Below are positions 301-15,822 of a DNA stretch of 64,000 nt, in pieces. Position 1 is the first letter of the stretch, and each line of letters begins with the position of its first letter. The position numbers and the translations under genes were made by a program. This DNA comes from a virus (taxonomy: Duplodnaviria; Caudoviricetes): IMG/VR virus record IMGVR_UViG_3300021962_000022. One strand, written 5' to 3'. The notes below the pieces were generated by a model. That model did no database searches, was not told the DNA's origin, and saw nothing but the letters and a program-made list of their open reading frames with translations.

Positions 301-331
301 TTTGTTTATACAAAATATAGATTTATATTTG
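301..331 (+). promoter_or_regulatory. Bacteroidota-type promoter
   Basis: TTTG-N19-TATATTTG upstream of the 352 operon. Confidence 0.85.
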
Positions 332-351
332 TACCATAAAACATTCAAAAA

Positions 352-630: not shown

Positions 631-632
631 CT

Positions 633-1037
633 ATGGCGAACCCACTAATTCACTCAAAGTCCAGCGTTAAGCGTTGGGGTGGTAAGGTAGAAGATTATCT
701 ACCTATCCACGAACTTATTGATAGTCCGAAGGCGACAATGAACAATAATAGTTCTCGTTTATTAACCCATAACACTTGGTTCGCCTACACTATCATTCCA
801 AAGATTTTTGGTTACAACATTGTTAATAGCGACGGAAAGTCAGTTGATGTCGTTGATATTGCGATGTTACATATCGCCGAAGATTTCAGAATGAAGTTTG
901 TTCCAACCCCACAAGATTACCTTAAACATTTAGAAGTTCAACCCTGGATGTGTAATGGGGTAAAGGACTTGGACAACCCCGAAGCGTACGAAGTAGTTAA
1001 ACAATTAAACCAAAAAATCCACGAATATGCAAACTAA
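633..1037 (+). CDS. DUF6915-like protein
   Basis: MANPLIHSKSSVKRWGG...EDYLPIH...HxxEDF motifs (family name recalled); ATG at 633 preferred. Confidence 0.7.
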   Translation: MANPLIHSKSSVKRWGGKVEDYLPIHELIDSPKATMNNNSSRLLTHNTWFAYTIIPKIFGYNIVNSDGKSVDVVDIAMLHIAEDFRMKFVPTPQDYLKHLEVQPWMCNGVKDLDNPEAYEVVKQLNQKIHEYAN

Positions 1038-1677: not shown

Positions 1678-1689
1678 AAAATTAAAGAG

Positions 1690-2379
1690 ATGAAAATAAT
1701 AATTGAAAACACTCGTTTTGACTACAACATTGGTTGTCGTTTATTGAAAACAAAATATCGTAATGTTCCTTTCAAAGGTTTGGAAGATATTTGGGAAGAT
1801 ATTGTTCCTATTACTTTCAAAGAAATTACAAAGGAACTTGAAAACATTGAACAACGAAGAATTGCGATAGGTTGTTTGGGTTTGGAAAACATTTACAAAG
1901 AAGTGAACCCAAAATTGGTAGGTTCAAAAACTATTTCAAAGGAAACCTTTTGGGTTGGTGAGAATAGTGAACTTATCAAAAACAACTTTGAGGACACCTA
2001 CGAACTTTATGAAGTAAAAGGAGATGTTTGGGGTGAAGGTTCAGACTTTGGTTGGCGGAAACCCGAAGATGTTTACTTTGTGAAGTGTAAGGACACATCA
2101 ACCGATAGAGAGTATTTTATTTGGGTGGACGCACAAAGTGTTTATCGTACTAACAACCCTAACCAATGGTTGTCAAGTAGTTCCAATTTCAGTAAAGAGA
2201 TTAACCCAATTCAAGCAATTGCGTGGACAATTCAAACAGACATCAAAGAAGGTGGTATTGAGAAAATTGTTCGTCAAGGTGATTGTGTTCTTATCAAAAA
2301 GAAAAAGAATAGTGAAAGAGGTTCGGTTAGACACTTAACTGAAAAAGAATACTTGAAGTTATTGGTCGCAGAAAGTTAA
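1690..2379 (+). CDS. DUF6745-related conserved protein
   Basis: EQRRIA...YELY...CKDTSTDREY...AIAWT...RQGD motifs (family name recalled). Confidence 0.65.
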   Translation: MKIIIENTRFDYNIGCRLLKTKYRNVPFKGLEDIWEDIVPITFKEITKELENIEQRRIAIGCLGLENIYKEVNPKLVGSKTISKETFWVGENSELIKNNFEDTYELYEVKGDVWGEGSDFGWRKPEDVYFVKCKDTSTDREYFIWVDAQSVYRTNNPNQWLSSSSNFSKEINPIQAIAWTIQTDIKEGGIEKIVRQGDCVLIKKKKNSERGSVRHLTEKEYLKLLVAES

Positions 2380-2400
2380 TTGGTTTGGTTTATTGGTTAG

Positions 2401-2428
2401 AACCCCCGCAGAAATGTGGGGGTTTTTT
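2401..2428 (+). terminator. intrinsic terminator, repeated family
   Basis: AACCCCCGCAGAAATGTGGGGGTTTTTT hairpin plus T-tract. Confidence 0.9.
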
Positions 2429-2467
2429 ATTGCTCACAACAGAAGACCAGTCAACAACACCAGGTCC

Positions 2468-2530
2468 TGATTTTGTTTGGCGTTCCGTAAAGTATTGATT
2501 TTATTAGGTTTCTATATGCCAAACAAATTT
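2468..2530. repeat. inverted motif pair with 36-bp spacer
   Basis: TTTGTTTGGC(2481)-N36-(2518)GCCAAACAAA with internal TAAAGTATTGATTTTATTAGG. Confidence 0.85.
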
Positions 2531-2640
2531 CCCTGGAGCGGCATCTGGGCGATTCCAGGTCTTTCTGCTAGTTTTACTGGTTTAACCAGCGCTGTTAGCT
2601 GGTCTTCTATAATTTGATTGGCGAAAAAGTATAAAAAAAT

Positions 2641-2671
2641 TTTGTTTATATTAGAATAGATACTATATTTG
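2641..2671 (+). promoter_or_regulatory. Bacteroidota-type promoter
   Basis: TTTG-N19-TATATTTG. Confidence 0.85.
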
Positions 2672-2696
2672 TATAAACCAATTAAAACAACACGTT

Positions 2697-3104
2697 ATGT
2701 ACGAATCAGTCAAAGAGTATTATCAGTTCTTAAATGAATTGAAAAAACAAAAGGAAGAGTTCCTTTTAAAAACAAAAGAAAGTGTTCTTCAACAAATGGA
2801 TGTTTTTATGTCCGAACATGGTTGGACACGAAAGAATGGGGGTAAAGATAGAAAATTTACTCAAAAAGTATTCTACACCAAAAAGTTCAATGGTAAAGAT
2901 ATCGTAATTGAGTATCGTTGTAACTACCAAGATGATTTTGTTGATGGTGGTTTACCCGAATTTTCACACGACAAGTCAATTCCCACTAGTATTGAAAAGT
3001 TGCAAATGGGTTACTTTCATTGGAACGACCACGATACAAGTGGTTGGAGTTTAGATGTGGTAATGGAACGGATGGAAGTCTTTTATGACAAGTACACCAA
3101 GTAA
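2697..3104 (+). CDS. hypothetical protein
   Basis: monocistronic ORF between a promoter and a terminator. Confidence 0.8.
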   Translation: MYESVKEYYQFLNELKKQKEEFLLKTKESVLQQMDVFMSEHGWTRKNGGKDRKFTQKVFYTKKFNGKDIVIEYRCNYQDDFVDGGLPEFSHDKSIPTSIEKLQMGYFHWNDHDTSGWSLDVVMERMEVFYDKYTK

Positions 3105-3108
3105 CTTG

Positions 3109-3138
3109 AAACCCTCACAGAAATGTGGGGGTTTTTTA
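3109..3138 (+). terminator. intrinsic terminator, repeated family
   Basis: AACCCTCACAGAAATGTGGGGGTTTTTT. Confidence 0.9.
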
Positions 3139-3204
3139 TTTACCACAGATGTTGGTGACCCCGGTTCAGGGTGGATTTAGGTTGGCAACAAAGTTTAAAA
3201 TAAA

Positions 3205-3236
3205 TTTGGATTATAAAAGTATTCGTATTATATTTG
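3205..3236 (+). promoter_or_regulatory. Bacteroidota-type promoter
   Basis: TTTG-N20-TATATTTG. Confidence 0.85.
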
Positions 3237-3256
3237 TATTATAAATCAACAAGGAC

Positions 3257-3475
3257 ATGATAAAATCAATTAATGAAAAACAGAGTGGGGTTGAGATTGA
3301 CCTCACAGGACCTGAAGGGAACGCGTTCGTTCTTATCGGGTACGCGGGTAAATGGGCGAAACAACTTGGATTGGACTCCAAAAAAATTCAGGAGGAGATG
3401 ATGAGTGGGGATTACGAGAATTTGATTGGCGTAATTGAAAAGTATTTCGGTGAATATGTAACTCTTTATCGTTAA
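3257..3475 (+). CDS. conserved phage hypothetical protein
   Basis: IDLTGPEGNAF...SGDYENL motif recalled from phage proteins. Confidence 0.8.
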   Translation: MIKSINEKQSGVEIDLTGPEGNAFVLIGYAGKWAKQLGLDSKKIQEEMMSGDYENLIGVIEKYFGEYVTLYR

Positions 3476-3479
3476 TCAT

Positions 3480-3683
3480 ATGGCGAAGAAAATTCAAATA
3501 TTGTCACCCGATGGGTTCACCCTTGAAAGGGATGTTCCCTACTACAAGTCGCACAGAGCTGCGGCGGAGGCATTCGCAAAATGGAAAAAAGGTTATGAAA
3601 CCCAAGGTTATTATTCTTCCGTAAAGTATGGACGAATTCACTTAAGTGACCTTGAAGATTATTGTCAACTTAATTATTTGTAA
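3480..3683 (+). CDS. hypothetical protein
   Basis: tightly packed ORF in operon. Confidence 0.75.
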   Translation: MAKKIQILSPDGFTLERDVPYYKSHRAAAEAFAKWKKGYETQGYYSSVKYGRIHLSDLEDYCQLNYL

Positions 3684-3688
3684 AAACC

Positions 3689-4009
3689 ATGAAAAACTAC
3701 AATCAACTCTGCGTATGGGAGGGAACTCTCGTAGGAAAAGACCAAGTAAAAGATTTCGAAAAATTCTTCAAAGAAGAAATGGGTACTCGAGTAAAGTACT
3801 TGGAAGAAATTGAAACACAACCAACACCTGGTGAACCTGATACAGGTGGACGTAACGATGTGTTCTTCTATGTACACAATGAGGACATTGATAAATTTGC
3901 AATACCTCGTTTGTCTATGGGTATTCGTTGGTGGGAGGATGTATTACGTAATGGTAATGGTGTTTTGTATACCGAAGATGTGTTGGAGAAATATCCGATG
4001 ACCTGGTAA
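3689..4009 (+). CDS. hypothetical protein
   Basis: tightly packed ORF in operon. Confidence 0.75.
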   Translation: MKNYNQLCVWEGTLVGKDQVKDFEKFFKEEMGTRVKYLEEIETQPTPGEPDTGGRNDVFFYVHNEDIDKFAIPRLSMGIRWWEDVLRNGNGVLYTEDVLEKYPMTW

Positions 4010-4038
4010 TCCCTCGAAATTGGTTGGCAAAAAACAAC

Positions 4039-4068
4039 TTGTAGAATAAAATAATAATTATACATTTG
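4039..4068 (+). promoter_or_regulatory. Bacteroidota-type promoter
   Basis: TTG-N19-TACATTTG. Confidence 0.75.
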
Positions 4069-4083
4069 TAAAAAACTAAACGT

Positions 4084-4335
4084 ATGACAAACCAAGAATT
4101 AACCACGTATTGGGTAAACCAATGTGAGAAAGTCCTAAAGGGACGTGTTATTAAATCAGTTCGTTATCTTACTGATGAGGAAATGGAACTTATGGGTTGG
4201 TACAAAAGACCTATTTGTTTTGAATTGGACAACGGAACACTTTGTATTCCTTCAATGGATGATGAGGGTAATGATGGTGGAAGTTTGTTCTATCAAGAAA
4301 AAGGTAAGGAACTTGATGTATTACCTGTAATCTAA
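4084..4335 (+). CDS. conserved phage hypothetical protein
   Basis: GRVIKSVRYLT...DDEGNDGGSLF motif. Confidence 0.8.
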   Translation: MTNQELTTYWVNQCEKVLKGRVIKSVRYLTDEEMELMGWYKRPICFELDNGTLCIPSMDDEGNDGGSLFYQEKGKELDVLPVI

Positions 4336-4378
4336 AAAACACTTGATAAGTTAAAAAAGAATGTGTAAGTTTTTGATA

Positions 4379-4448
4379 GATTACATTTCATAGTTGTAAT
4401 TTGTGTTTGGTTTGACACTTAAAGGGGTTCTACGGAATCCCTTTTTTT
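4379..4448 (+). ncRNA. candidate small RNA (about 70 nt)
   Basis: near-consensus promoter TTG(4343)-N20-TAAGTTT, no + strand ORF, own terminator at 4421-4448. Confidence 0.4.
4421..4448 (+). terminator. intrinsic terminator
   Basis: AAAGGGGTTC-TACG-GAATCCCTTTTTTT. Confidence 0.85.
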
Positions 4449-4536
4449 ATGTCTAAATCTTTAAAAATCAATCACTTATAATCCACCAGGCGGGACGACT
4501 GGACGATTTTGTTTGGCAAAAAACACTAGTATTTTA

Positions 4537-4660
4537 TTTGTATATTCTTAAAATCTTTATTATGTTTGTCATACATAAAGTCAAAGATGTATGTGGAAAA
4601 ACTTTTTTGAAAAAAACTTTAAAAAAAATTTGGAAAAAAAGAAAAACTATTATATCTTTG
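4537..4660 (+). promoter_or_regulatory. tandem Bacteroidota-type promoters of the ParB-like gene
   Basis: TTTG(4537)-N20-TATGTTTG and TTTG(4629)-N20-TATCTTTG. Confidence 0.8.
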
Positions 4661-4701
4661 TACCCGAAATTAAATCATTTAACTTTTAATTCAGAAACGA
4701 C

Positions 4702-5454
4702 ATGACAAAAAATGTTCAAGTAAAGTTCACCCAAAATTTGGGTATGTTCAAACTTCACAACGTAAATCGTGAGGTTGACACTCCACGCGTTAAGCGTATT
4801 ACCGACTCAATGAAGAAAGACGGATTAAAACTCGTCCCAATCATTGTTAACTCTAACTATGTTGTAGTTGACGGACAACACCGACTAACTGCAGCAAAAG
4901 AAGCGGGTAAAGGAATCTACTTTATTGTAGATGTTACTATCCCGAACACTACGAAAGGAATCTTTGAAGCCGCACGTAAGTTCAATCAGAACATGAAAGA
5001 GTGGGGTAAGAAAGATTACATTCACGGGTTCTCTGAACAAGGAAACAAATCCTACAAAACTTTGGAGGATTTTTCAAAAGAGTTCCCAATGTTCTCATTG
5101 ACTGAACGAATTATGTTACTTCAAAATTCGGGTACTCGTCATGTGGACAAACAAGATTTCGCCGATGGAAAGTTTATCGTGGGTGATATGGATAAGGCGA
5201 AAGAATGGGCGAACAACCTACTTCAACTCAAACCTTACTTTGAAAAGGGTTACAACAAATCAGTATTTGTTCGTACACTTCTTACCATTATGGAAAAGAA
5301 GACCGACTTCAAGTTTGAGGAGTTTCTTCACAAAGTAAAACTTCGTCCAAGTTCAATCTTTATGTGTGGTGATAAAAAATCATACGCGGAAATGATTGAG
5401 GACATTTACAACTATAAGCGTCGTACTGACGAAAAGTTGAATCTTCGTTTCTGA
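4702..5454 (+). CDS. ParB/Sulfiredoxin N-terminal domain protein
   Basis: PIIVN...VVDGQHRLTAA motif followed by a helical C-terminal region. Confidence 0.8.
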   Translation: MTKNVQVKFTQNLGMFKLHNVNREVDTPRVKRITDSMKKDGLKLVPIIVNSNYVVVDGQHRLTAAKEAGKGIYFIVDVTIPNTTKGIFEAARKFNQNMKEWGKKDYIHGFSEQGNKSYKTLEDFSKEFPMFSLTERIMLLQNSGTRHVDKQDFADGKFIVGDMDKAKEWANNLLQLKPYFEKGYNKSVFVRTLLTIMEKKTDFKFEEFLHKVKLRPSSIFMCGDKKSYAEMIEDIYNYKRRTDEKLNLRF

Positions 5455-5478
5455 CTTTAAGTTTTAGGGTTAGTAATT

Positions 5479-5508
5479 GGGGGTGACCGAAAGGTTATCC
5501 CCTTTTTT
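5479..5508 (+). terminator. intrinsic terminator
   Basis: GGGGGTGACC-GAAA-GGTTATCCCCTTTTTT. Confidence 0.9.
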
Positions 5509-5660
5509 ATGCGAAAAATTCACAAGATGTTCTCACCTGTCGACGGATTCTGGATGTTGTTTGGCGTAGTTTTCAACACACAAATGTTTGTAATCCAATA
5601 AAAAAGACACTTTTTGTTTAATGTTTGACTAAAAAAACCTGAACAAAATAAAAATATTTG

Positions 5661-5691
5661 TTGTTTTTAGAAAATATTCTTATTACCTTTG
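5661..5691 (+). promoter_or_regulatory. Bacteroidota-type promoter
   Basis: TTG-N20-TACCTTTG. Confidence 0.7.
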
Positions 5692-5714
5692 TACCATACT
5701 TCAAAAACTTGAAT

Positions 5715-6086
5715 ATGATAAAAAAACCAAGAAAGACTACGGCTAATTCTCTGAAGAAGTCTTTACACGAAATTCGTGAATGCCTTAATGAGAGTTTACC
5801 AAACTTTGAGAAGAAAGAAATGGTGGGAATTAAGTTCTCAAGAGTTGGTACTCGTTATCACATCGAAAATGCACCAGTTCCTCCTACCGATAAGATTGGT
5901 GTACAGCTTGAACGTTCTTTCAATGATTTTATGCGTAAGCTGAAAGTAAACTATGGTGGAATGAAGCTGGAAGGTTCAATGGTTATGGGAACTAAAGCTG
6001 ACATGTTTTTGGTTGGCTACAATAACTTTGAGCGTAAAGGTAAAAACCTCACCAAAAAGGGACATTCAATAGAAGGAGTTCTGTAA
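5715..6086 (+). CDS. basic hypothetical protein
   Basis: ATG at 5715 lies downstream of the promoter; the longer TTG start overlaps it. Confidence 0.75.
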   Translation: MIKKPRKTTANSLKKSLHEIRECLNESLPNFEKKEMVGIKFSRVGTRYHIENAPVPPTDKIGVQLERSFNDFMRKLKVNYGGMKLEGSMVMGTKADMFLVGYNNFERKGKNLTKKGHSIEGVL

Positions 6087-6116
6087 TTAGTATATTGATT
6101 TAATGTTCGGTTCAAG

Positions 6117-6147
6117 AAGCCCTCGCAGAAATGTGGGGGTTTTTTTA
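6117..6147 (+). terminator. intrinsic terminator, repeated family
   Basis: AAGCCCTCGCAGAAATGTGGGGGTTTTTTT. Confidence 0.85.
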
Positions 6148-6209
6148 TGCCTGAAGATTTCGAGTCACGGTTCAGGACGGATTTAGGTTGGCAACAAAGT
6201 AGAAAAAAG

Positions 6210-6241
6210 TTTGGTAAAAAGAAATAATTATTATATTTTTG
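6210..6241 (+). promoter_or_regulatory. Bacteroidota-type promoter
   Basis: TTTG-N20-TATTTTTG; about 60 bp nearly identical to the 9562 promoter region. Confidence 0.8.
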
Positions 6242-6265
6242 TATATGAATTTAAAAATGAAAGAC

Positions 6266-6700
6266 ATGAAAACAATATTTGCAAGTTTGTTGTTCACTTT
6301 AGTAACAACCACGTCAATGGCTCAAATGATGAAACCTGAGTATGATTGGAATAACTTTGATGAGAAATCTTATCAACTCCACAAAAAGGAATTGAATCAG
6401 TATTATGATTCTAAAAAAGAGGAAGTAATCAAAGAATATAGTTCTGGTTGGAGAACTATTGATTATACTGAATCTAAAAAAGTAGATTTGGAAATAATTG
6501 AAGTTGACAGAAAAGCGGATTTGGATGAATTGGAATTATATTACAAATTAGAAAACGAATCATCTTTCGAAAAAATGATTAGAAGTATTAAAGTATTTCG
6601 AAATTCAGTAACATTCAAATATGGTGTTCTACCGATTTCAATAGGATTTTTGTTAGGTATTCTACTCGTGGTTTTTCGAAAGACGACAAGTAAAATATAA
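6266..6700 (+). CDS. exported protein with C-terminal membrane anchor
   Basis: signal-peptide-like MKTIFASLLFTLVTTTSMAQ; C-terminal hydrophobic helix. Confidence 0.7.
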   Translation: MKTIFASLLFTLVTTTSMAQMMKPEYDWNNFDEKSYQLHKKELNQYYDSKKEEVIKEYSSGWRTIDYTESKKVDLEIIEVDRKADLDELELYYKLENESSFEKMIRSIKVFRNSVTFKYGVLPISIGFLLGILLVVFRKTTSKI

Positions 6701-6704
6701 TCAT

Positions 6705-6733
6705 AACCCTCACAGAAATGTGGGGGTTTTTTT
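6705..6733 (+). terminator. intrinsic terminator, repeated family
   Basis: AACCCTCACAGAAATGTGGGGGTTTTTTT. Confidence 0.9.
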
Positions 6734-6834
6734 ATGTCTGAAATTTTCAGGATACTGTTCAGGATGGATTTAGTTTGGCGTGGGCCAACCAATATCCAGA
6801 ATCCGTCGACAGGTGAAAAAAAAATAAAAATAAA

Positions 6835-6866
6835 TTTGGAATATAAAAATATTCGTTTTATATTTG
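6835..6866 (+). promoter_or_regulatory. Bacteroidota-type promoter
   Basis: TTTG-N20-TATATTTG. Confidence 0.85.
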
Positions 6867-6887
6867 TATTGTTAAACCAATACTATT

Positions 6888-7658
6888 ATGAAATATAGAA
6901 ACAAGACCCAAGCAAAAAGAGAAACGGGAATCAATTATTTAGGTTCTGTTAACATGACTACTAAACACGCTAAGGCGTATAAGTATGATGAATTAACCTA
7001 CAGTCTTTACCTCGCACCCGCAAAGTTGAGTGGTTATGAGGTTTGTCCTACGAGGAATAAAGAGTGTACCGCACTATGTTTAAACGAATCTGGTATGAAT
7101 CGTATGAACATGAATAATGACATGATTACTGAAAGTAGGATTAAAAAGACAAAATTGTTTTTTGAACAACGTCAGTATTTTATGGAATGGATGGTTGAAG
7201 AAATTATCACCGCAAAAAATAAGGCGGAAAAATTAGGTTTTCACTTCAGTGTTCGTTTAAATAACACTTCAGACATTACACCCGAATCCTTTCATATGGA
7301 TGTAAACGGCGAAAGAAAAAACATTTTACAATTGTTTCCCGATGTTACTTTTTATGATTACACCAAAGTACCGAAGAGAGTTGAACTTGTTAAAAAGTAT
7401 ACCAACTATGATTTGACATTTTCATTTAGTGGAGACAACTTCACCGATTGTGTAAACATGTTGAATGGTGGAGTAAGAGTTGCGGTTGTTTTCAAAAAAG
7501 AATTACCAAAAACATTTTGGGGTAGAAAGGTTATCGATGGTGACTTATATGATATGAGATATCGAGATGAGAAAGATGTTATTGTGGGGTTAAAGTATAA
7601 AGTCACACGAAAACGACCCGATAAAAATAGCAAGTTTGTAGTAGACCCCTCACAATGA
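6888..7658 (+). CDS. Gp88-like protein with Cys cluster
   Basis: LYLAP...VCP-x5-C-x3-CL...RLNNTSDI...FYDYTK...IDGD..D.R motifs (family name recalled). Confidence 0.6.
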   Translation: MKYRNKTQAKRETGINYLGSVNMTTKHAKAYKYDELTYSLYLAPAKLSGYEVCPTRNKECTALCLNESGMNRMNMNNDMITESRIKKTKLFFEQRQYFMEWMVEEIITAKNKAEKLGFHFSVRLNNTSDITPESFHMDVNGERKNILQLFPDVTFYDYTKVPKRVELVKKYTNYDLTFSFSGDNFTDCVNMLNGGVRVAVVFKKELPKTFWGRKVIDGDLYDMRYRDEKDVIVGLKYKVTRKRPDKNSKFVVDPSQ

Positions 7659-7669
7659 GGGGTTTTTTT
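7645..7669 (+). terminator. intrinsic terminator overlapping the stop codon
   Basis: ACCCCTCA-CAA-TGAGGGGT plus T-tract. Confidence 0.85.
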
Positions 7670-7711
7670 ATGCTTAAGCGCAGCTGTGCTGCTGGTTGCG
7701 CGCTGGCCCCT

Positions 7712-7773
7712 AATTTAGTTTGGCGTGAGTAAAGTGTTGATTTTATTAGGGTTGTGTAACGCCAAACAAAATC
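7712..7773. repeat. inverted motif pair with 36-bp spacer
   Basis: TTAGTTTGGC(7724)-N36-(7761)GCCAAACAAA with internal TAAAGTGTTGATTTTATTAGG. Confidence 0.85.
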
Positions 7774-7894
7774 GACCTGGAAGCTGCGCTGTTGCAGCTG
7801 GTGAGCAGCTGGTGAAAAACTAGCTATTTGCTCTGGTTACTGTCGTTCAGGGCTGGGATGGTAAAAATAGTTTGGCAACAAAGTTTAAAAAATA

Positions 7895-7926
7895 TTTGGA
7901 ATATAAAATTATTCATATTATATTTG
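7895..7926 (+). promoter_or_regulatory. Bacteroidota-type promoter
   Basis: TTTG-N20-TATATTTG. Confidence 0.85.
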
Positions 7927-7945
7927 TATCCTAAATCAATTAAAA

Positions 7946-8548
7946 ATGGGACAGTATTTTAAACCAATTATTCTCGGTGAAAAACCGAAAGACGGTGAAA
8001 ACGAAACCGTAAAGGCGTGGATGTATTCACATTCATATGACAATGGTCTCAAACTAATGGAACATTCCTATCAAGGAAACAACTTTGTTTCAACGTTTGA
8101 AAAAGAATTAACCCGAAGAGGGTCACATTACAAAAGTCGTGTAGTGTGGGGTGGTGATTACGCCGATGAAGAACCGGGGGTAAAAGTTATTAGTGAAGGG
8201 AAAGAGTACGACGCAAATTTGTATTCACTTTGTAATGATGAAAACGAAATCAAACCAAAGGTTGCAAAAACGGATGACTACCCTTTTATTGTAAATCACA
8301 CTAAAAAACAATTCGTAGATAAAAACAAAGTACCCGAAATTCAAGATTGGGAAGGTGTAAAAATTCACCCTTTACCACTTTTAACTAGTGAGGGTAACGG
8401 ACAAGGTGGTGGTGATTTTAGGGGAGAAGATGAAAATGAAATTATTGGTTCGTGGGCGAGGGATGTTATCTCAATAGAAAAGGAAAGTCCGTTAGTCATG
8501 ATTGGTACAACGGATTATACCGAATTAATTTTTGATTTGAAAGAGTAA
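7946..8548 (+). CDS. conserved phage hypothetical protein
   Basis: MGQYF...GLKLMEHSY...IHPLPLLT.EGNG.GGGDF motifs. Confidence 0.85.
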   Translation: MGQYFKPIILGEKPKDGENETVKAWMYSHSYDNGLKLMEHSYQGNNFVSTFEKELTRRGSHYKSRVVWGGDYADEEPGVKVISEGKEYDANLYSLCNDENEIKPKVAKTDDYPFIVNHTKKQFVDKNKVPEIQDWEGVKIHPLPLLTSEGNGQGGGDFRGEDENEIIGSWARDVISIEKESPLVMIGTTDYTELIFDLKE

Positions 8549-8551
8549 AAA

Positions 8552-8578
8552 AATTCCCCCGTGACAGGGGGATTTTTG
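8552..8578 (+). terminator. intrinsic terminator fused to the TTGGC motif
   Basis: AATTCCCCC-GTGACA-GGGGGATTTTT running directly into GTTTGGC. Confidence 0.75.
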
Positions 8579-8602
8579 TTTGGCAACAAAGTGTAAAATA
8601 AA

Positions 8603-8634
8603 TTTGGAATATAAAGATATTTGTTTTATATTTG
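8603..8634 (+). promoter_or_regulatory. Bacteroidota-type promoter
   Basis: TTTG-N20-TATATTTG. Confidence 0.85.
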
Positions 8635-8660
8635 TATCATAAACCAATTAAATAATCGAT

Positions 8661-9059
8661 ATGTCAAAAAGTATTAAAGTTCGTTTTAACCTCGGCAAGG
8701 GTAAAAACTACATGAAGTGGAAGGTAACACATCCTGATGGTGATGTTATCTACTATAGTCCTGATGAAGTACAAATGGTAATGACCGAGTGTACATTTAA
8801 AAACCACAAGAGTACCGCACAGAAAATTTTCGATGGTGCACACAAAACAGTTTGTGCGTGGATACTATGTAAGGACATTAAGATTTACACAGGTAAACCA
8901 ATCACGGATGAAAGTAGAAGGGTTCGTTATAATCCACGTGTCCAACCTAACTGGATATTCGATGGTCATATCATGGATAATGATGGGGTACCGAAATTAC
9001 ACACAATTGAAAGTGGCGTTTATATCACAGAAGGAAAAGGTGAAAATTGTTTGGCATAA
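8661..9059 (+). CDS. conserved phage hypothetical protein
   Basis: KVRFNLGKGKNYMKWKV...HKTVCAW motifs; follows a promoter. Confidence 0.8.
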   Translation: MSKSIKVRFNLGKGKNYMKWKVTHPDGDVIYYSPDEVQMVMTECTFKNHKSTAQKIFDGAHKTVCAWILCKDIKIYTGKPITDESRRVRYNPRVQPNWIFDGHIMDNDGVPKLHTIESGVYITEGKGENCLA

Positions 9060-9070
9060 AATAAAACAAC

Positions 9071-9553
9071 ATGGAACTCATCAAAGCACAACAACTCGCA
9101 GAGAAACTAATCCACAGACACGACCTTGATGTTAAAGGATGGAGATTTTCATTTGATAACGCAAGACGTAGGTTCGGATGTTGTAAGTACAGAAGTAAAC
9201 AAATTACTTTATCCAAAGTATTGACTTTACTAAACAATGAGAAAGAAGTAAAGAATACTATTCTACATGAAATTGCACACGCATTAACACCAGGTCATCA
9301 CCATGATTGGGTGTGGAGACAGAAAGCAATTGAAATAGGATGTAATGGAAGTCGTTGTTACAGTTCTAAAATAGTTGCAACCCCTGAACCAAGATATGTT
9401 GCGACCTGTGTGGGATGTGGTAAACAACATAGTAAGAACCGTTTGAGTAAATGGTCGTCATCATCATGTCGTCCGTGTTCGGGTGGCCGTTACAACGAGA
9501 AGTTCAAACTTGAGTTCAGGATAAATCCGAAATTTAGTTTGGCAACAAAGTAG
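9071..9553 (+). CDS. SprT-like zinc metalloprotease
   Basis: RRFGCC...ILHEIAHA...HHDWVW motif and a C-terminal CxxC..CxxC. Confidence 0.85.
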   Translation: MELIKAQQLAEKLIHRHDLDVKGWRFSFDNARRRFGCCKYRSKQITLSKVLTLLNNEKEVKNTILHEIAHALTPGHHHDWVWRQKAIEIGCNGSRCYSSKIVATPEPRYVATCVGCGKQHSKNRLSKWSSSSCRPCSGGRYNEKFKLEFRINPKFSLATK

Positions 9554-9561
9554 AAAAAAAG

Positions 9562-9593
9562 TTTGGTAAAAAGAAATAATCATTATATCTTTG
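9562..9593 (+). promoter_or_regulatory. Bacteroidota-type promoter
   Basis: TTTG-N20-TATCTTTG. Confidence 0.85.
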
Positions 9594-9615
9594 TATTACA
9601 ATTAAACCAATAGAC

Positions 9616-9927
9616 ATGAAAAAAGTAAAAGAACTTTATCGAAGTAAACTACATGGTCGAGATAAATCTCATGATGTGGTAATCATCCAAGACACTACAA
9701 GAGTAAGTGGATGTAAATTAAAAATGACCTACGAATGTTACAACGCGGTTGAACGATTTACAGGTGAACGACTTGTGGGTGGTAAGTGGGAGTTTAACTT
9801 CTCAATGGAAGATTTAGGGGTAACCCCTGATAGGAGTAACTACGTATGTGACAGTAGTAAACGTTTGGAAAGAACGGAGAACTTAATTCAAAAAGGTATC
9901 GAATTTTTTAACATTTTAAATCAATAA
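9616..9927 (+). CDS. hypothetical protein
   Basis: ORF after a promoter. Confidence 0.8.
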   Translation: MKKVKELYRSKLHGRDKSHDVVIIQDTTRVSGCKLKMTYECYNAVERFTGERLVGGKWEFNFSMEDLGVTPDRSNYVCDSSKRLERTENLIQKGIEFFNILNQ

Positions 9928-9931
9928 AATC

Positions 9932-10480
9932 ATGGGACTAGACATGTATCTCAGCAAGAAGACCTACGTTAAGAACTGGGACTTCCAAGACAAATCACAA
10001 CAGCACAAGGTGACTGTTAAAAAGGGTAGTAAGGTTCGCACCGACATCAAACCTGAACGTGTGTCATACATCACAGAGAGTGTGGCGTATTGGAGAAAAT
10101 CAAATCACATTCACCAATGGTTCGTAACGAATTGTCAAGGTGGTGAAGACCAATGTCAGGAGTCATATGTGGACAGAGGTCAACTTCAGGAGTTGGTCAA
10201 TATCTGTAAACAAGTGAAAGAGAGTTTGGAGAAATCAGGTAAGAAGACCGTGAAGATGGAAGTTGGTTGGCAGAACGGAGAAAAGATGTATGACGATGTT
10301 GAGGTGTTTGAGGATACCGAACTCGCAGAAGAATTACTTCCAACTCAACCCGGTTTCTTCTTCGGTGGAACGGAGTACGACCAATGGTATGTTCATGGTT
10401 TAGATGAAACCATCAATCAAATTGAACCACTTCTACAAGAAGAAGGGGATGGTGACTTCTACTATCAGTCATCCTGGTAA
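9932..10480 (+). CDS. conserved phage hypothetical protein
   Basis: MGLDMYL...YWRKSNHIH.WF...LLPT..GFFFG...YQSSW motifs. Confidence 0.85.
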   Translation: MGLDMYLSKKTYVKNWDFQDKSQQHKVTVKKGSKVRTDIKPERVSYITESVAYWRKSNHIHQWFVTNCQGGEDQCQESYVDRGQLQELVNICKQVKESLEKSGKKTVKMEVGWQNGEKMYDDVEVFEDTELAEELLPTQPGFFFGGTEYDQWYVHGLDETINQIEPLLQEEGDGDFYYQSSW

Positions 10481-10501
10481 AAAAAAATAACTGGGATATT
10501 A

Positions 10502-10533
10502 TTTGGTAAAATGATATCCCAGTTTTACCTTTG
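10502..10533 (+). promoter_or_regulatory. promoter straddled by an 11-bp inverted repeat
   Basis: TTTG-N20-TACCTTTG; AACTGGGATAT(10489)-N14-ATATCCCAGTT(10524). Confidence 0.75.
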
Positions 10534-10561
10534 TATAATGAAAGCTTAAAAAATTAGAGAT

Positions 10562-11173
10562 ATGCCAAACTGGTGTTCAAATAAAATAGAGATAACAGGT
10601 ACTAAAGAGCAAATAGCTCTACTTACCAAAGTTCTTGAGGATGTACCAAAATCCAAACCCCAAGAGTGTATCGTTTTTGAGTCCTTAATCGGTCGTGAGC
10701 CCGATATGTCAAAAGATGAATACGAACAAGGTGGATGGTACCAATCAAACATCGGTTGGTTTGGCACCAAGTGGGATGTATCCTACGACGATTGCAACTT
10801 TAACTTTGAGGATGAGTGTATTACAATGTATCCCGACACGGCGTGGTCACCACCAATAGGATTTGGTGCTAGGTTGCACGAGATGTATGGTGTGGATGTT
10901 GAGTTATATTACGAAGAACCTGGTTGTGATTTCTGCGGTAAAACTATTATTAAAAATAGAACCATAACAGAAAATGACTATGGTTATATGGAAGGTATCT
11001 ATCACTTCAATGATGAATACTTTTGGGAAGGATTATTGGACAATGAAATAGAGTACGCAAATGATGAGGGTATGAGTGTAGATGAGTTTGCGGAGAAGTT
11101 TAATTTCGTATCCGAAGATGACCTAAAAGAAATTAAAAAGATTTACGAAGAAAAATTAATTGAAAATAAATAA
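10562..11173 (+). CDS. YubB/DUF1281-like ferredoxin-fold protein
   Basis: MPNWCSN...WFGTKWD...TAWSPP...YEEPGCDFCG motifs. Confidence 0.75.
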   Translation: MPNWCSNKIEITGTKEQIALLTKVLEDVPKSKPQECIVFESLIGREPDMSKDEYEQGGWYQSNIGWFGTKWDVSYDDCNFNFEDECITMYPDTAWSPPIGFGARLHEMYGVDVELYYEEPGCDFCGKTIIKNRTITENDYGYMEGIYHFNDEYFWEGLLDNEIEYANDEGMSVDEFAEKFNFVSEDDLKEIKKIYEEKLIENK

Positions 11174-11175
11174 CG

Positions 11176-11436
11176 ATGGATAACTTAAAAGTAATGTCGA
11201 CAGCAGAACCTCAGGTACAATTAACCTATCAAGAATGGGTTGACGAATTGAGGATAAAAGAAAATGTAATTGTTTCATCCAAATACCACTCAAGAACAAT
11301 TGAGCAGCGTATACGGGTGGATGAAGCAATTCAACTAAAAAGAGAAATGGAAACCTCTGAAGAAAAAGTTTCCGACGGGACAGCTGAACCTCGGATTTTG
11401 TTTGGCATGTTAAGAACAGTAATAAACCTATTTTAA
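11176..11436 (+). CDS. hypothetical protein
   Basis: ORF in operon; contains a coding copy of the TTGGC motif. Confidence 0.6.
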   Translation: MDNLKVMSTAEPQVQLTYQEWVDELRIKENVIVSSKYHSRTIEQRIRVDEAIQLKREMETSEEKVSDGTAEPRILFGMLRTVINLF

Positions 11437-11439
11437 ATT

Positions 11440-11925
11440 ATGGGACGAGTAAATAAAACAATCGAAGGTGTCTTCATCGACATCGTAGGGTCCTCAAGTG
11501 AACTTAGTTCATATGACCAATTCATTAACCATGGAGGTGGTAAGAAATATTCCAAGGAGTTGGAAGAACTTACAGCCCTGTATAAGAAGGAGGTTACTAA
11601 GAGTAAAGTGATGTTCGAAAAACTTGCATCACTCGAGGAGATTATAATCCAAATGAGGATTCGTGAGGACCTTAGTGATATCAAGTTGACCCAAGTCCGT
11701 GAGTACATCTACGCAAGGACTCCATTCTACCGTAAGGATAAGAAGTCAAAAGATGTCCGTGTCATTGTCGACAAAATTGAATTCCATCCTGAGTCGGACG
11801 GTAACCTCGAGATTTTGCTTGGCAACAAGGACTTCATGGAGAAAGCAAAAAACAAGTTGGCCCAAGCAATGGACCTTGAGATTTTAGAGAATATCAAAAC
11901 ATTCAATTCATCATTTAAAAAGTAG
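11440..11925 (+). CDS. hypothetical coiled-coil protein
   Basis: ORF in operon; contains a coding copy of the TTGGC motif. Confidence 0.8.
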   Translation: MGRVNKTIEGVFIDIVGSSSELSSYDQFINHGGGKKYSKELEELTALYKKEVTKSKVMFEKLASLEEIIIQMRIREDLSDIKLTQVREYIYARTPFYRKDKKSKDVRVIVDKIEFHPESDGNLEILLGNKDFMEKAKNKLAQAMDLEILENIKTFNSSFKK

Positions 11926-11929
11926 AGTC

Positions 11930-12232
11930 ATGAAAAGAACAGAAGACATCAAAACAAACATTGGTTTATCAATCTTCAAAGGAGATTGGGACGGTGCAAC
12001 TTGGACCATCACTGGTTTCCCTAAAAAGGATGTGATTAGTCACGACTTTGATTCAGCATATGATTTCGAGGATTGTATTAAACGAAATGTTAATTGCAAC
12101 GGAATCGATTTCGACAGTGAGTATTGTCAGTTCTTTGCATACGCAAAAACCAAAGCACGTTTAGTGTCTTTTGCAAAACAGATTGAAAAACATTTCGAGA
12201 AAGCAAAGAAGGTGATGGAGGAGATGTACTGA
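11930..12232 (+). CDS. hypothetical protein
   Basis: ORF in operon; FDSEYCQF motif. Confidence 0.8.
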   Translation: MKRTEDIKTNIGLSIFKGDWDGATWTITGFPKKDVISHDFDSAYDFEDCIKRNVNCNGIDFDSEYCQFFAYAKTKARLVSFAKQIEKHFEKAKKVMEEMY

Positions 12233-12262
12233 TTTTGTCTGGCGAAAAATATCACAAAAAAA

Positions 12263-12294
12263 TTTGGAATATTCTAGAATTAGTATTAAGTTTG
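12263..12294 (+). promoter_or_regulatory. Bacteroidota-type promoter
   Basis: TTTG-N20-TAAGTTTG. Confidence 0.8.
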
Positions 12295-12313
12295 AATCAA
12301 GAACCAAAATATT

Positions 12314-12631
12314 ATGTCATATAAACAACAAGTACAGGATTTACAGAATGATATTATAAACAATATCAAACGATTCGTAGGTGAACTCGGTCAAGATGAA
12401 TTACATTTTAACGAGATGTTTAGAGTTTGGGTAACTATATCAACTTGGGACGATGATTATGTTCGTGTGTCATACGCGGCGGTCGGGTTACGGGGTGAGT
12501 TTGTTATCTGTACCAGTGAGGTTGAGGAAGAAGAAATTCAATTAGGGGAACTCGACATATATGAGTTGTCATACATTTTAGATTTACTAATATCAAATCA
12601 ATTTAAAACCGATAACAATGGACAAGATTAA
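12314..12631 (+). CDS. acidic hypothetical protein
   Basis: ORF after a promoter. Confidence 0.75.
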   Translation: MSYKQQVQDLQNDIINNIKRFVGELGQDELHFNEMFRVWVTISTWDDDYVRVSYAAVGLRGEFVICTSEVEEEEIQLGELDIYELSYILDLLISNQFKTDNNGQD

Positions 12632-13217
12632 ATTAAACAGTAAGGTCGTCGTATCCGACCCTTGTTACACAATCCCAACCTGGTGTCAAGCTGTAGTTGA
12701 CAAAGTAAAACCCGGTATGTATGACACCCACCTGAAGAAACACGACGCAGGTGATTGGGGTAAGAGATGTTCAATGTTACTTGTCATACACGAGGACCAT
12801 AAAGATGATATCCTAAGATGGGAGGAACATTCCGCAACCATCGGGGTCGATTCAGGTCAGTGTGGTATCTTCTCAAAAGAAACTTACCGTAACGATTCAA
12901 TCACCGAGAAAATTGGTTTGGGTGATGGGGACATTTCATTCTTTGGTGTTTCACCTTGGAAAGAAATGACTGATGGTCGTAAAGAGGAAGAAGGAGAAAT
13001 ATGGTATGTTAGTATGTGTTCTCGAACCTTAGGTGAAAAATCTTGGGGTGTGTATGACAGTGGAGTCGTATCCTCATCAGGTTTTGGTGACGGTTCATAC
13101 AGTTTATATGTCGCAAAGAAAAGAGGAAAGATTGTGGCAATGTGTGTGGACTTTCAAGTTGAAGAAGAAGGTGTAATCGATTTTGATTTTTTTCGCGATA
13201 TCCAACTAGAGAAGTAA
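12618..13217 (+). CDS. DUF4241-like protein
   Basis: VVSDPCY...GVDSGQCGIF...SSGFGDGSY motifs. Confidence 0.7.
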   Translation: MDKIKLNSKVVVSDPCYTIPTWCQAVVDKVKPGMYDTHLKKHDAGDWGKRCSMLLVIHEDHKDDILRWEEHSATIGVDSGQCGIFSKETYRNDSITEKIGLGDGDISFFGVSPWKEMTDGRKEEEGEIWYVSMCSRTLGEKSWGVYDSGVVSSSGFGDGSYSLYVAKKRGKIVAMCVDFQVEEEGVIDFDFFRDIQLEK

Positions 13218-13240
13218 TAAATTTTATTTAGATTTGAATC

Positions 13241-13522
13241 ATGAAAAAATTACTATTGATATTGCCAATTTTATTTGTGGTTGGGTGCAGAAGTACCTCA
13301 ACATACATCAAACACTCGGATGTAGCAATCGTATCGGGTGACATCCTTTATATATGCAATAAGGGACACGGTCCGATGATTTATAATTATTGGAAGAATG
13401 ATGTTTACTGTGACTCAACAATTAAGAGTGTTTATTTGTTGGACAGTATCCCATTTAATGCATTGTCCAAGAAATCCATACCATGTGGATGTAATCAAAG
13501 AGGGTATGCTAAATTAAAATAA
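13241..13522 (+). CDS. putative lipoprotein
   Basis: lipobox-like LFVVGC after a hydrophobic signal. Confidence 0.7.
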   Translation: MKKLLLILPILFVVGCRSTSTYIKHSDVAIVSGDILYICNKGHGPMIYNYWKNDVYCDSTIKSVYLLDSIPFNALSKKSIPCGCNQRGYAKLK

Positions 13523-13989
13523 TGACTATGTTCAATAAACAACACGCATCAAAACCGAATCATATCTTGAGTCCATCTCAGTGGATGAATTTTGGTTGGC
13601 TAACCATGGTACCTGTATCATATTTCGTCCACCCATATGCATGTGCACTGGCTGTGGTCATATACATCTACAAATATTTCGAAGTAGACTGTTGGAGGTA
13701 TGAATTCTATGATGACTGTGTTGTTGAACGTAAAGGAGTCTTCAGTGTGACTCGTGAATCGGTTCAGTACTTCAGGATTAAATCTGTAATGGTGGATGAA
13801 CCATTCTGGATGAGACTCCTCGGGTTATCAATTGTAAGAGTGATGACCTCAGAACAATTTAAACATGAATTAATATTTCAGGCCGTAGAAGAGGGTGAAG
13901 GAATTCAGGCATACTTACAACACAACGCAAGAGCAGAAAGATTGAATATGGGAATCAGGGATTTCGATGTATACAATACGCATCTGTAA
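13522..13989 (+). CDS. membrane protein with bacterial PH (bPH_2) domain
   Basis: two TM segments then YEF...ERKGVF...RIKSV....PFWMRLLGL. Confidence 0.75.
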   Translation: MTMFNKQHASKPNHILSPSQWMNFGWLTMVPVSYFVHPYACALAVVIYIYKYFEVDCWRYEFYDDCVVERKGVFSVTRESVQYFRIKSVMVDEPFWMRLLGLSIVRVMTSEQFKHELIFQAVEEGEGIQAYLQHNARAERLNMGIRDFDVYNTHL

Positions 13990-13993
13990 CGTT

Positions 13994-14314
13994 ATGAAAC
14001 TGTTCATCAGAGATAAGGTATACTTTACGGACCCTACTACAGGAGAGTTCTTTGAAGACACTATAACACATGTCGACGAACAGGTTATAATGGGAAGAGA
14101 CCGTGACTTGACATCGTTACACGAGAGAGGAGATTTAAATATCTATCGGATGCAATGTTACGTATGTGGATGTATAATCCCGAAACCATTATCACAGTTT
14201 CAGGTGGACGGTTTAAAGGGTAAACAACAATTGTTACCATCCACATGTAACGTCTGTCTAAGTGACCCGAGATATTATGAGGACCCTGAGGAGGGAATCA
14301 TACTGTTCATTTAG
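13994..14314 (+). CDS. hypothetical protein with C-terminal zinc finger
   Basis: CYVC...CNVC; ATG at 13994. Confidence 0.7.
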   Translation: MKLFIRDKVYFTDPTTGEFFEDTITHVDEQVIMGRDRDLTSLHERGDLNIYRMQCYVCGCIIPKPLSQFQVDGLKGKQQLLPSTCNVCLSDPRYYEDPEEGIILFI

Positions 14315-14460
14315 TTTGGCTAAGTCCGACGACAGGTGATACCGGAATTCCCGATTTAGTTTGGCCGAATCAGAATCGGTCGACGGGACCTGAGATGGTG
14401 GATTTAGTTTGGCGGGGGTTCAGATGACAGGTGACCCTGGAATCCCCGATTTAGTTTGGC
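14309..14460 (+). repeat. tandem array of four ATTTAGTTTGGC cores
   Basis: exact 12-mers at 14309, 14354, 14402 and 14449 (periods 45, 48, 47) with related GC-rich spacers. Confidence 0.9.
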
Positions 14461-14516
14461 ACAAGTTCTTTAAAATATTTTATACAGGATTTGGTTTTTA
14501 GGATTTTCTTGTTTAT

Positions 14517-14524
14517 TATTTATA
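14517..14524 (+). promoter_or_regulatory. putative late promoter TATTTATA
   Basis: 17 nt upstream of ATG 14542; the motif recurs before about 10 genes. Confidence 0.55.
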
Positions 14525-14541
14525 TACAAAATTATTATATT

Positions 14542-14814
14542 ATGGCAACAAAGAAGTCCACAACAAAAAAACCCGCTAGCAAACCCGCAGCGAAACCAGC
14601 ACCAGCCCCTAAGAAGGGTGGGTCTAAAAAAGCCGTAGCTACACCCGTGGCGAGAACAACTGTTAGTACTTATGTAGCAGTTTCTCACCACATCTACTAC
14701 GATGGTTTCTCTTACCGAGTTCGCGCTAGTGTTAACGGAACCCGTTACTCTCAGAACTTCTCTTCTAAGAAGAAAGCGTTCGCGTTCCGTAAGAGTATTT
14801 TGAGTACTATGTAA
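14542..14814 (+). CDS. small basic DNA-binding protein (histone-H1-like tail plus AP2-like domain)
   Basis: K/A/P-rich N-terminus, then IYYDGFSYRVRASVNGTRYSQNFSSKKKAFAFRK (three strands plus a helix pattern). Confidence 0.6.
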   Translation: MATKKSTTKKPASKPAAKPAPAPKKGGSKKAVATPVARTTVSTYVAVSHHIYYDGFSYRVRASVNGTRYSQNFSSKKKAFAFRKSILSTM

Positions 14815-14837
14815 TTTTACAAAAAATCTCTTAACTG

Positions 14838-14870
14838 AATCCTGTGATTAGTTTCACAGGATTTTTTTTT
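14838..14870 (+). terminator. intrinsic terminator
   Basis: AATCCTGTGA-TTAGTT-TCACAGGATT plus T-tract. Confidence 0.9.
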
Positions 14871-14930
14871 GTCCTGAAAGTTTTGTTTAAAAAAACAATG
14901 ACCGACGAATTTAGGTTGGCATTTTTTAGG

Positions 14931-14994
14931 TGTATGACACCGAACCCCGTGTATGACATATATACACATATATAAAACCATCCCTTGTATGACA
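14931..14994 (+). repeat. three direct TGTATGACA repeats in the strand-switch intergenic region
   Basis: exact copies at 14931, 14950 and 14986. Confidence 0.85.
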
Positions 14995-15220
14995 TCTAAA
15001 TGGTTTATATCTAATACTGTTTTTCTGAAAATATAAAAATATAACTCTTATTTCACGAAAGGGACAATCCTACACTATCTCCCACAATTTACCACTTTGA
15101 CACACTTTTGTCGATTGTAATACGACCAGCGGGATTTTTTGTAATACATCCATATATATTCTGAAAAAATTCCTTACGACAAAAAATGTCTGGATTAGGG
15201 GGTTAAAATCAAGGATTTTT

Positions 15221-15415
15221 TTACTCTTCTTGTATTACATGGGGGTCATAAATGACCACCTTATCCTCCCTATAAAAATCCACAGAGGGTAACCCACTAT
15301 ACTGACATGTTAATTTTTCCCTATCCTCAATCAGTTTCTTTTTTATAGAATCCTCAAAGTAAACACCATCAGATTCCATATCCGATAGTGGTCTATGTAG
15401 CATATATTTTTTCAT
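15221..15415 (-). CDS. hypothetical protein
   Basis: CQYSGLPS motif; last gene of the minus-strand block. Confidence 0.65.
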   Translation of the reverse strand: MKKYMLHRPLSDMESDGVYFEDSIKKKLIEDREKLTCQYSGLPSVDFYREDKVVIYDPHVIQEE

Positions 15416-15782: not shown

Positions 15783-15822
15783 TTTGTCTTTTTCTCAAAT
15801 ATAAGATACAAATTTCTAATAC

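Follow-up and report, generated by a model that had tools for sequence, protein, structure and literature searches.

Among T4-type phages, the available parts of two reports describe promoter-early stem-loop (PeSL) cassettes in RB49/phi1, PST/T4 and nt-1/KVP40 and document gene shuffling mediated by them (PMC2839356, PMC4122927). In phage T4, active origins lie near strand switches and oriE contains 12-nt repeats (PMC3016281), and phage T5, whose genome ends are fixed, has its injection-stop signal, with 8 DnaA boxes, in the left terminal repeat of 10 kb (Davison, 2020; bioRxiv 10.1101/866236). Here we analyse a 64,000-nt stretch of viral DNA (IMG/VR record IMGVR_UViG_3300021962_000022, the whole of which we call the window), in which four tandem copies of a 12-mer, ATTTAGTTTGGC, precede the gene of a small basic protein at the end of a block of early genes on the + strand, and we argue, tentatively, that this array is a set of protein-binding sites. 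Two further kinds of repeat array serve for comparison: iteron origins (lambda ori, P1, R6K gamma) consist of evenly spaced repeats of ~17–22 bp that occur at the origin only and to which a Rep initiator binds, and the Sal-box/TTF-I and Reb1 elements of eukaryotic ribosomal DNA stand in tandem at the 3' end of a transcription unit, where they stop transcription as well as replication forks.

The window is phage DNA of ~67% A+T, with genes on the + strand from 1 to 14.8 kb and on the - strand from 15.2 to 60 kb, the latter including those for a helicase and a thymidylate synthase. Relatives of the small gene were identified in the 14 IMG/VR contigs first fetched (up to 311 kb); three of these, G001 (288 kb), G002 (311 kb) and G003 (202 kb), were searched whole, and the completeness of G001 and G002 is estimated at 92–93%. 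Related contigs encode a T4-type major capsid protein, and the source is a giant (jumbo) T4-like freshwater phage with a Bacteroidota host, from a group that is abundant in freshwater and present in at least 15 sequencing studies. DNA runs X1–X3 contain the sequence at 97–99% of words.

A strand-polar 12-mer confined to the early block

A sequence-only reading of the window had described four cores at periods of 45–48 bp, and exact copies of the 12-mer indeed lie on the + strand at 14309, 14354, 14402 and 14449 (spacings of 45, 48 and 47 bp). Its remark that spacers 1 and 3 are related also held, with 85% identity over 41 nt, core included (repeat family D19), as did the order that it gave for the downstream features, namely the small gene, a terminator, three short repeats and about 400 gene-free bp (406 bp in our analysis), and the convergent switch at which the + strand genes end and the - strand genes start at 15221. 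The last copy that it placed near 14920 is present, although not as an exact match, ATTTAGGTTGGC having one mismatch to the 12-mer. Seven exact copies occur in the window and none in 100 dinucleotide-preserving shuffles; with up to two mismatches, 27 matches were counted where 9.1 ± 3.3 would be expected, and with up to one mismatch 13 copies on the + strand and a single one on the - strand, all between 2470 and 14920. The 12-mer is confined to the co-directional early block (11–18 kb) in the window (259–14920) and in the three contigs searched whole, which upholds the proposal that a functionally distinct early segment is bounded here: all 18 copies in G001 are on one strand between 211.0 and 229.3 kb, all 18 in G003 fall within 4.9–23.2 kb, and G002 has 13 copies within 49.0–59.7 kb and two strays elsewhere. 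Variants of the motif are concerted within each phage (ATTTAG, ATTTTG or AATTAG). The array has an A+T content of 49%, compared with 67% for the window. A coding repeat was considered and rejected, as three does not divide every spacing (45, 48 and 47) and stops occur in the relevant frames, and folding of the array as RNA revealed no structure relative to shuffles (z = -0.27), which favours a site acting at the level of DNA.

Upstream of the array the 12-mer recurs as part of a larger unit. Seven 12-mers of the window are followed by AACAAAG, then by 8–9 nt and then by TTTGG(-33)-N19-20-TAnnTTTG(-7), which we take to be the -33/-7 promoter form of Bacteroidota, and the dispersed copies are placed ~18 nt upstream of the promoter matches. 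The host promoter grammar of Bacteroidota differs from that of E. coli. Consensus matches to TTTG-N18-21-TAnnTTTG on the + strand lie inside the early block in 13 of 14 cases (301–12263), and the promoter units could be aligned as repeat families D1–D4. On the other side of the motif, hairpin terminators of families D7 and D9 are found at a constant distance upstream of several copies, with near-identical GC hairpins and T runs at 2401, 3110, 6118 and 6705. As terminator and promoter hold fixed positions around the 12-mer, the early block appears to be built of terminator–12-mer–promoter cassettes set between small genes, most of which have no known function according to family scans. When the four-copy array was inspected for the same design, units 1–3 were found to consist of the 12-mer and a GC-rich linker, with neither a -33/-7 pair nor a hairpin followed by a T run.

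Conservation of the array could be followed across the relatives, where three to five copies bracket the small gene in ten cases, a point in favour of the sequence-only reading (copies upstream + downstream: window 4+1, L001 2+3, L005 1+4, L013 2+2, L014 3+2, L075 2+2, L076 2+1, L078 2+2, L080 2+3). The small proteins of these relatives are 58–90% identical to that of the window, the copy-to-copy spacing ranges from 41 to 59 bp, and individual types of GC-rich linker recur in distant relatives. In L086, a phage at a still greater distance, a diverged motif (ATGTTATTGGGCAA) occupies the equivalent places and an array of TGTATGAC lies downstream of the small gene. Homology between the window and L005 breaks at 14320/14321 and 14447/14448, that is at the edges of copies 1 and 4, and parts of the L005 downstream array match segments of the three units that the window has in addition; taken together, these breaks and matches suggest that the small gene, along with its promoter and terminator, shifts position within an array of about five copies, and that the 12-mer is a joint of cassette rearrangement. 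No tyrosine recombinase was found in three related contigs, making general recombination the likelier agent. Early genes elsewhere in the block are rearranged as well, window positions 1–6000 being homologous to 48.3–52.0 kb of G002 in permuted order, and the comparison points clearly to modular shuffling of the early block between the window phage and G002; in L005-type phage, only the promoter/terminator cassettes match window positions 1–6000. The locus thus also shows cassettes of early genes being rearranged at very short conserved sites.

Some copies of the motif are paired. Inverted 12-mer pairs lie at 2470–2529 and 7713–7772, around a conserved 36-bp core, and the window itself starts inside such an element, with a half-copy at 1–49. 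Perfect 11-bp hairpins, their loops 14–17 nt long, are formed by the diverged motif of L086 at 2301–2342 and 2694–2736. Integron-like site-specific recombination was rejected, given the negative recombinase search in three related contigs and the fact that most copies have no inverted partner.

The small protein and the gene-free zone

The protein encoded next to the array combines a Lys/Pro/Ala-rich tail, which varies in length, with ~50 C-terminal residues that are almost invariant among relatives. AlphaFold2 models three strands (residues 48–53, 58–64 and 67–73) and a helix (76–88), giving a three-stranded sheet on a C-terminal helix, with ten-residue block means of the predicted local distance difference test (pLDDT) of 84–94 over residues 51–90. 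Searches of the sequence against Pfam (E ≤ 0.1), PHROG and PDB sequences returned no match, and Foldseek against the PDB returned nothing at E ≤ 0.001. The fold matches with the lowest root-mean-square deviation (rmsd) were AP2 domains, that of PfSIP2 (Z 4.2, rmsd 2.0, 45 residues) and a GCC-box domain (Z 3.6, rmsd 1.8, 42 residues); these matches are weak, many unrelated folds reach an equal Z, and dsRNA-binding domains score similarly. A profile search with the domain retrieved ~110 clusters (50% identity) of small basic proteins (P0055–P0163), and P0154 is a NUMOD4-HNH_3 homing-endonuclease-like protein that carries the domain at both ends. The flanks of such endonucleases are the usual place of DNA-binding modules. 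We consider the small protein a probable sequence-specific nucleic-acid binder, and make no claim of AP2 membership. In two distant family members the gene is again the last of a + strand block before a convergent switch. If the small protein does bind the sites, a function would follow for an as yet unannotated family, which numbers over 100 clusters.

Downstream of the small gene, no open reading frame (ORF) of at least 60 aa is present in 14815–15220. Part of this stretch is a scar: the L005 segment that it replaces holds a four-copy array and a 272-aa gene, both absent from the window (Table 1), and a gene of 246–272 aa with no assigned function is kept here in most relatives and was lost from the window phage. 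The zone also contains three copies of a 9-mer, TGTATGACA, the second motif that keeps to the early block. It occurs as nine exact copies in the window against 1.2 expected, in both orientations and always below 15 kb, and all 10 copies in the 288-kb relative and all 8 in the 311-kb relative lie inside or at the edge of the early block. Relatives have a tight array of the 9-mer at the start of a ~260-aa gene that is absent from the window. Copies of the 9-mer adjoin the edges of the scar.

The remainder of the zone (14948–15222) is homologous to the relatives' own non-coding stretch. Within it, a 42-bp segment enclosed by inverted repeats has three CCCAC-type words ~10–11 bp apart and is reverse-complemented in L013, L014, L078 and L080; a tree of the flanks gives at least two inversion events, and the segment could be an active switch or reflect recurrent hairpin-mediated inversion. 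Two invariant blocks follow. The TTACGACAAAAAATGT block occurs once per genome, whereas the ATTGTAATACGNCCAGC pattern matched 58 viral contigs, 41 of them in unrelated coding sequences, and the TTACGACAAAAAATGT block accompanies it in only 17 loci, all from this phage group. Folding of the zone as RNA on both strands gave no structure compared with shuffles (z = +0.60 and -0.29), and an alignment of ten zone sequences held only one invariant 4-bp hairpin and no covariation. From these comparisons, the gene-free zone appears to be in part a deletion scar and in part a unique conserved cis element. The element is separate from the 12-mer array, lying ~0.9 kb from it in relatives, and would be a better candidate for an origin than the array.

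Metatranscriptome contigs match both the small gene (14546–14733, 188 nt, run X17, where its depth of 22.6 is the highest among the pieces listed) and the gene-free zone (14982–15232, 251 nt, depth 7.1, run X16, a near-exact match); they are a hint only, because such contigs prove neither transcription nor transcript ends and DNA carry-over is possible.

Table 1. Coordinates of features at the array, in the early block and in the gene-free zone of the window, with sigma-like matches in two related contigs
Feature	Position	Strand	Remarks
Dispersed 12-mer copies, up to two mismatches	259..13600	+	across early block
115-aa ORF, no family match	13967..14314	+	TAG stop inside 12-mer copy 1; likewise in L005
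Four-copy ATTTAGTTTGGC array	14309..14460	+	GC-rich linkers of 33–36 nt
Promoter region of small gene, 84% A+T	14461..14541	+	conserved GTTCTTTRAAATATTT box and TTTGG element
Small basic-protein gene, 90 aa	14542..14814	+	Lys/Pro/Ala-rich tail and ~50-aa domain
Intrinsic terminator of small gene	14837..14873	+	hairpin 14837–14864, then T run
Deletion scar	14871..14947		77 bp in place of ~1,020 bp (L005 6328–7351)
Fifth 12-mer copy, ATTTAGGTTGGC	14909..14920	+	one mismatch
Three exact TGTATGACA copies	14931, 14950, 14986 (14931..14994)	+	third copy in loop of decayed terminator hairpin
Conserved AT-rich block	15020..15056	+	early-promoter-like, without canonical -33/-7 pair (family D10)
Inverted repeats ACAATCC / GATTGT	15064..15119		enclose 42-bp segment 15071–15112
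Invariant blocks ATTGTAATACGNCCAGC and TTACGACAAAAAATGT	15114..15222		60–61 nt apart, then GGGTTAAAA and T run
Last gene of converging - strand block, 64 aa	15221..15415	-	stop codon at 15221
All TGTATGACA copies in window	4567, 10062, 12567, 12718, 12782, 13051, 14931, 14950, 14986
Sigma70_r2-type / sigma-like matches	G001 142709–142915, 40895–41080; G002 176791–176997, 266387–266572

Several wider searches complete this description. A nucleotide search of 13900–15400 against 50,697 deposited phage genomes gave no match, an Rfam scan of 1–20000 gave nothing above threshold (a sub-threshold Phe_leader match at 6642–6735 was taken as chance), and a search for tRNA genes found none. G001 and G002 each encode a protein of 276–285 aa with a strong Sigma70_r2 match and a second sigma-like protein of ~233 aa with a weaker one. 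A search for late promoters yielded no clear enriched 8-mer upstream of 71 minus-strand ORFs.

Weighing the readings of the array

The reading that we favour, and that we regard as plausible while holding it tentatively, is that the array comprises binding sites for a trans-acting factor, probably the adjacent small protein, and controls or insulates early transcription at the end of the block. Single 12-mers upstream of early promoters would be bound by a sequence-specific factor, most likely the small protein, which from a position ~55–66 nt upstream of early transcription starts would modulate these promoters or insulate them. Autoregulation would result from the copies clustered around the gene of the factor itself, and this cluster would also form a boundary keeping early transcription out of the converging replication-gene block, and the same 12-mers would serve as joints for cassette rearrangement by recombination. 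What the sequences show is how the motif is distributed, its polarity and conservation, the breakpoints, its place relative to consensus promoter matches and the modelled fold of the protein; that this protein is the partner of the 12-mer, and that transcription is what is affected, is inferred. A number of points weigh against this account. The protein is paired with the motif through their adjacency alone, and the array of the 9-mer could equally be its target; all fold matches have a Z below 5 and no Pfam family was matched. The array spacing of 41–59 bp in relatives means that binding would not be helically phased, a site at about -60 is outside the core promoter, making simple repression not obvious, and the fixed distance between motif and promoter could stem from cassette duplication rather than function. 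Finally, the conservation of linkers in distant relatives hints at further sites and a more complex element. A narrower proposal, which we think quite unlikely, would make the locus a dedicated end-of-early-block module of T4-like jumbo phages of Bacteroidota, in which an H1-tailed AP2-like protein binds the polar 12-mer, present singly before nearly every early promoter and in tandem where the block ends. The protein would regulate promoters from nearby and, at the convergent junction, be a polar roadblock to transcription (perhaps also to replication forks), by analogy a counterpart of Sal-box/TTF-I or Reb1, with the unique cis element and its repeatedly inverted 42-bp segment as neighbour.

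The sequence-only reading had itself proposed a candidate genome end, a terminal repeat or an injection stop of the T5 kind, or else a replication landmark. The first group, to which a pac site may be added, draws on the repeat-rich and partly gene-free stretch at the end of the early block, which is like the T5 left terminal repeat (bioRxiv 10.1101/866236), and on several related contigs whose breaks fall 5–24 kb upstream, within this block or where it starts. The array is nonetheless crossed by every one of the 14 contigs first fetched, with ~6 kb to either side of it. In contigs of an estimated 92–93% completeness the block is internal (41–59 kb from the nearer end), the motif block occurs once per contig, the early block has no duplicate, and no repeat is common to the two ends of the 288-kb contig. 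Moreover, the capsid protein is of T4 type, and an exact DnaA box (TTATNCACA) is absent from 14200–15300, where the two one-mismatch matches both fall in AT-rich sequence, leaving no DnaA-box cluster at the locus. Assemblies can collapse terminal repeats, which limits contig-based evidence on termini, and only 20 reads of the raw-read run X24 mapped to the first 20 kb, too few for a terminus or coverage profile. As for GC skew, an inflection does occur here (+0.12 to -0.24, with the sign change at 14.5–15 kb) but is not the global extreme of the 288-kb relative, where ~15 sign changes all track gene strand. With continuous contigs, no terminal repeat and a skew that follows strand, a genome end or injection stop is not supported, and we regard it as very unlikely. 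(In G001 the global maximum and the global minimum of the cumulative GC skew are only 23 kb apart, the curve dropping from one to the other at 108–131 kb, a compositional oddity unrelated to the early block.) A replication landmark, with the array or more likely the zone 15020–15222 as an origin or polar fork barrier, has more in its favour and still seems unlikely to us. Direct repeats stand beside the 84% A+T stretch at 14461–14541 and a small putative DNA-binding gene, the zone is unique per genome, strongly conserved and without RNA structure, its three CCCAC words lie ~10–11 bp apart between inverted repeats, the skew changes sign at the locus, and T4 offers a precedent in its active origins near strand switches and the 12-nt repeats of oriE (PMC3016281). 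That precedent is weakened by the T4 repeats being 24 nt apart inside gene 5 and of unproven role, and the skew flip by its being one of ~15 that follow gene strand and no global extreme. The 12-mer, for its part, is spread over 15 kb upstream of promoters rather than gathered at one site, its array spacing of 41–59 bp is variable, unlike that of iterons, family scans of window proteins revealed no Rep-type initiator nearby, and a convergent junction fits a terminus rather than an origin. If there is an origin here, the unique zone is mainly its possible candidate, and nothing singles that zone out.

Two other explanations were weighed. The 12-mer might be the core of PeSL-like cassettes with no trans-acting factor, the array then being a row of empty cassettes left by recombination. 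The breaks exactly at the 12-mer, the shift of the small gene within the array, the loss of the 272-aa gene from the window and the shuffled gene order between the window and G002 all suit this idea, and PeSL-mediated shuffling is documented in the available parts of the PeSL reports (PMC2839356, PMC4122927). It accounts poorly, however, for a 12-mer that stays exact while its flanks diverge, for three to five copies kept among phages whose small proteins are 58–90% identical, and for linker types conserved in distant relatives; besides, 12 bases are very short for homologous recombination, and the strict polarity and block confinement suggest selection, leading us to judge mere debris improbable. 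Alternatively, the 12-mer could be read as a promoter or initiator by a phage-modified RNA polymerase, for example one carrying a phage sigma-70-like factor, the array then consisting of promoters in tandem. The motif is strand-polar and runs in the direction of the genes, several copies stand 1–45 nt before start codons with no host-type promoter between (11395 in the window; 2502, 3742 and 4945 in L013; 5268 in L014), and a strong Sigma70_r2 match was obtained for a 276-aa protein of relatives. A conserved second element at a fixed distance is nevertheless missing, with less than 0.5 bit at +14 to +60 and at -2 to -45 except for ~0.8 bit at -4, and array copies 1–3 precede GC-rich linkers rather than leaders or genes, whereas seven copies lie upstream of complete host-type promoters. 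That no single-subunit (T7-type) RNA polymerase was found in relatives points the same way but is weak, control genomes being silent too. We rate this possibility as rather unlikely.

Comparison with described systems

Despite some shared features, the array differs from each of the repeat systems with which an origin or a genome end might be sought. Like oriE, it presents 12-nt direct repeats in a T4-type genome, with small genes alongside and near a change of strand and skew. The T4 'iterons', however, occur every 24 nt in the 3' part of gene 5 (L074 4403–4570) and, lying inside that gene, coincide with a coding repeat, whereas the copies described here are intergenic, 41–59 bp apart and also dispersed upstream of promoters; the two showed no sequence similarity, and the role of the T4 repeats is unproven. 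With T5 the locus shares a repeat-rich untranslated stretch downstream of the first-expressed genes, but no terminal repeat, contig end or DnaA-box cluster was found at it, and the phage is of T4 type. The likeness to iteron origins is that direct repeats stand next to an A+T-rich stretch and to the gene of a putative DNA-binding protein; the core is only 12 bp, however, the neighbour is a 90-aa beta3-alpha protein, copies extend over 15 kb, and the repeats are neither regular nor held to a single site (41–59 bp spacing, dispersal over 11–18 kb), while the A+T-rich stretch at 14461–14541 doubles as the small gene's promoter region. The Sal-box and Reb1 elements resemble it in arrangement, with a polar element that stands singly upstream of promoters and in tandem at a 3' end; there is no homology and the domain of life is another, such that the comparison would be one of analogy only.

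The PeSL cassettes come closer. To our knowledge, no counterpart of the T4 MotA/AsiA switch has been described for T4-like phages of Bacteroidota. As far as the available parts of the PeSL reports go, both systems pair a repeated stem-loop terminator with a strong host-type early promoter (here in the form of consensus matches), both sit between small genes of no known role in the hyperplastic early region of a T4-like phage, and both show indels and gene shuffling at the repeats among relatives. On the same partial basis, three differences stand out: the promoters here are of the Bacteroidota -33/-7 type, an additional and strictly polar 12-mer is inserted between terminator and promoter, and this 12-mer also forms promoter-less tandem arrays around one small gene at the end of the block. 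Those parts of the PeSL papers describe neither the polar 12-mer and its tandem arrays nor the 9-mer, nor the unique zone that contains the inverting segment. The dispersed cassettes represent a Bacteroidota version of the PeSL design, and the locus at the end of the early block adds compact, conserved components to it, namely the polar 12-mer and the 9-mer, the 90-aa protein and the unique non-coding element.

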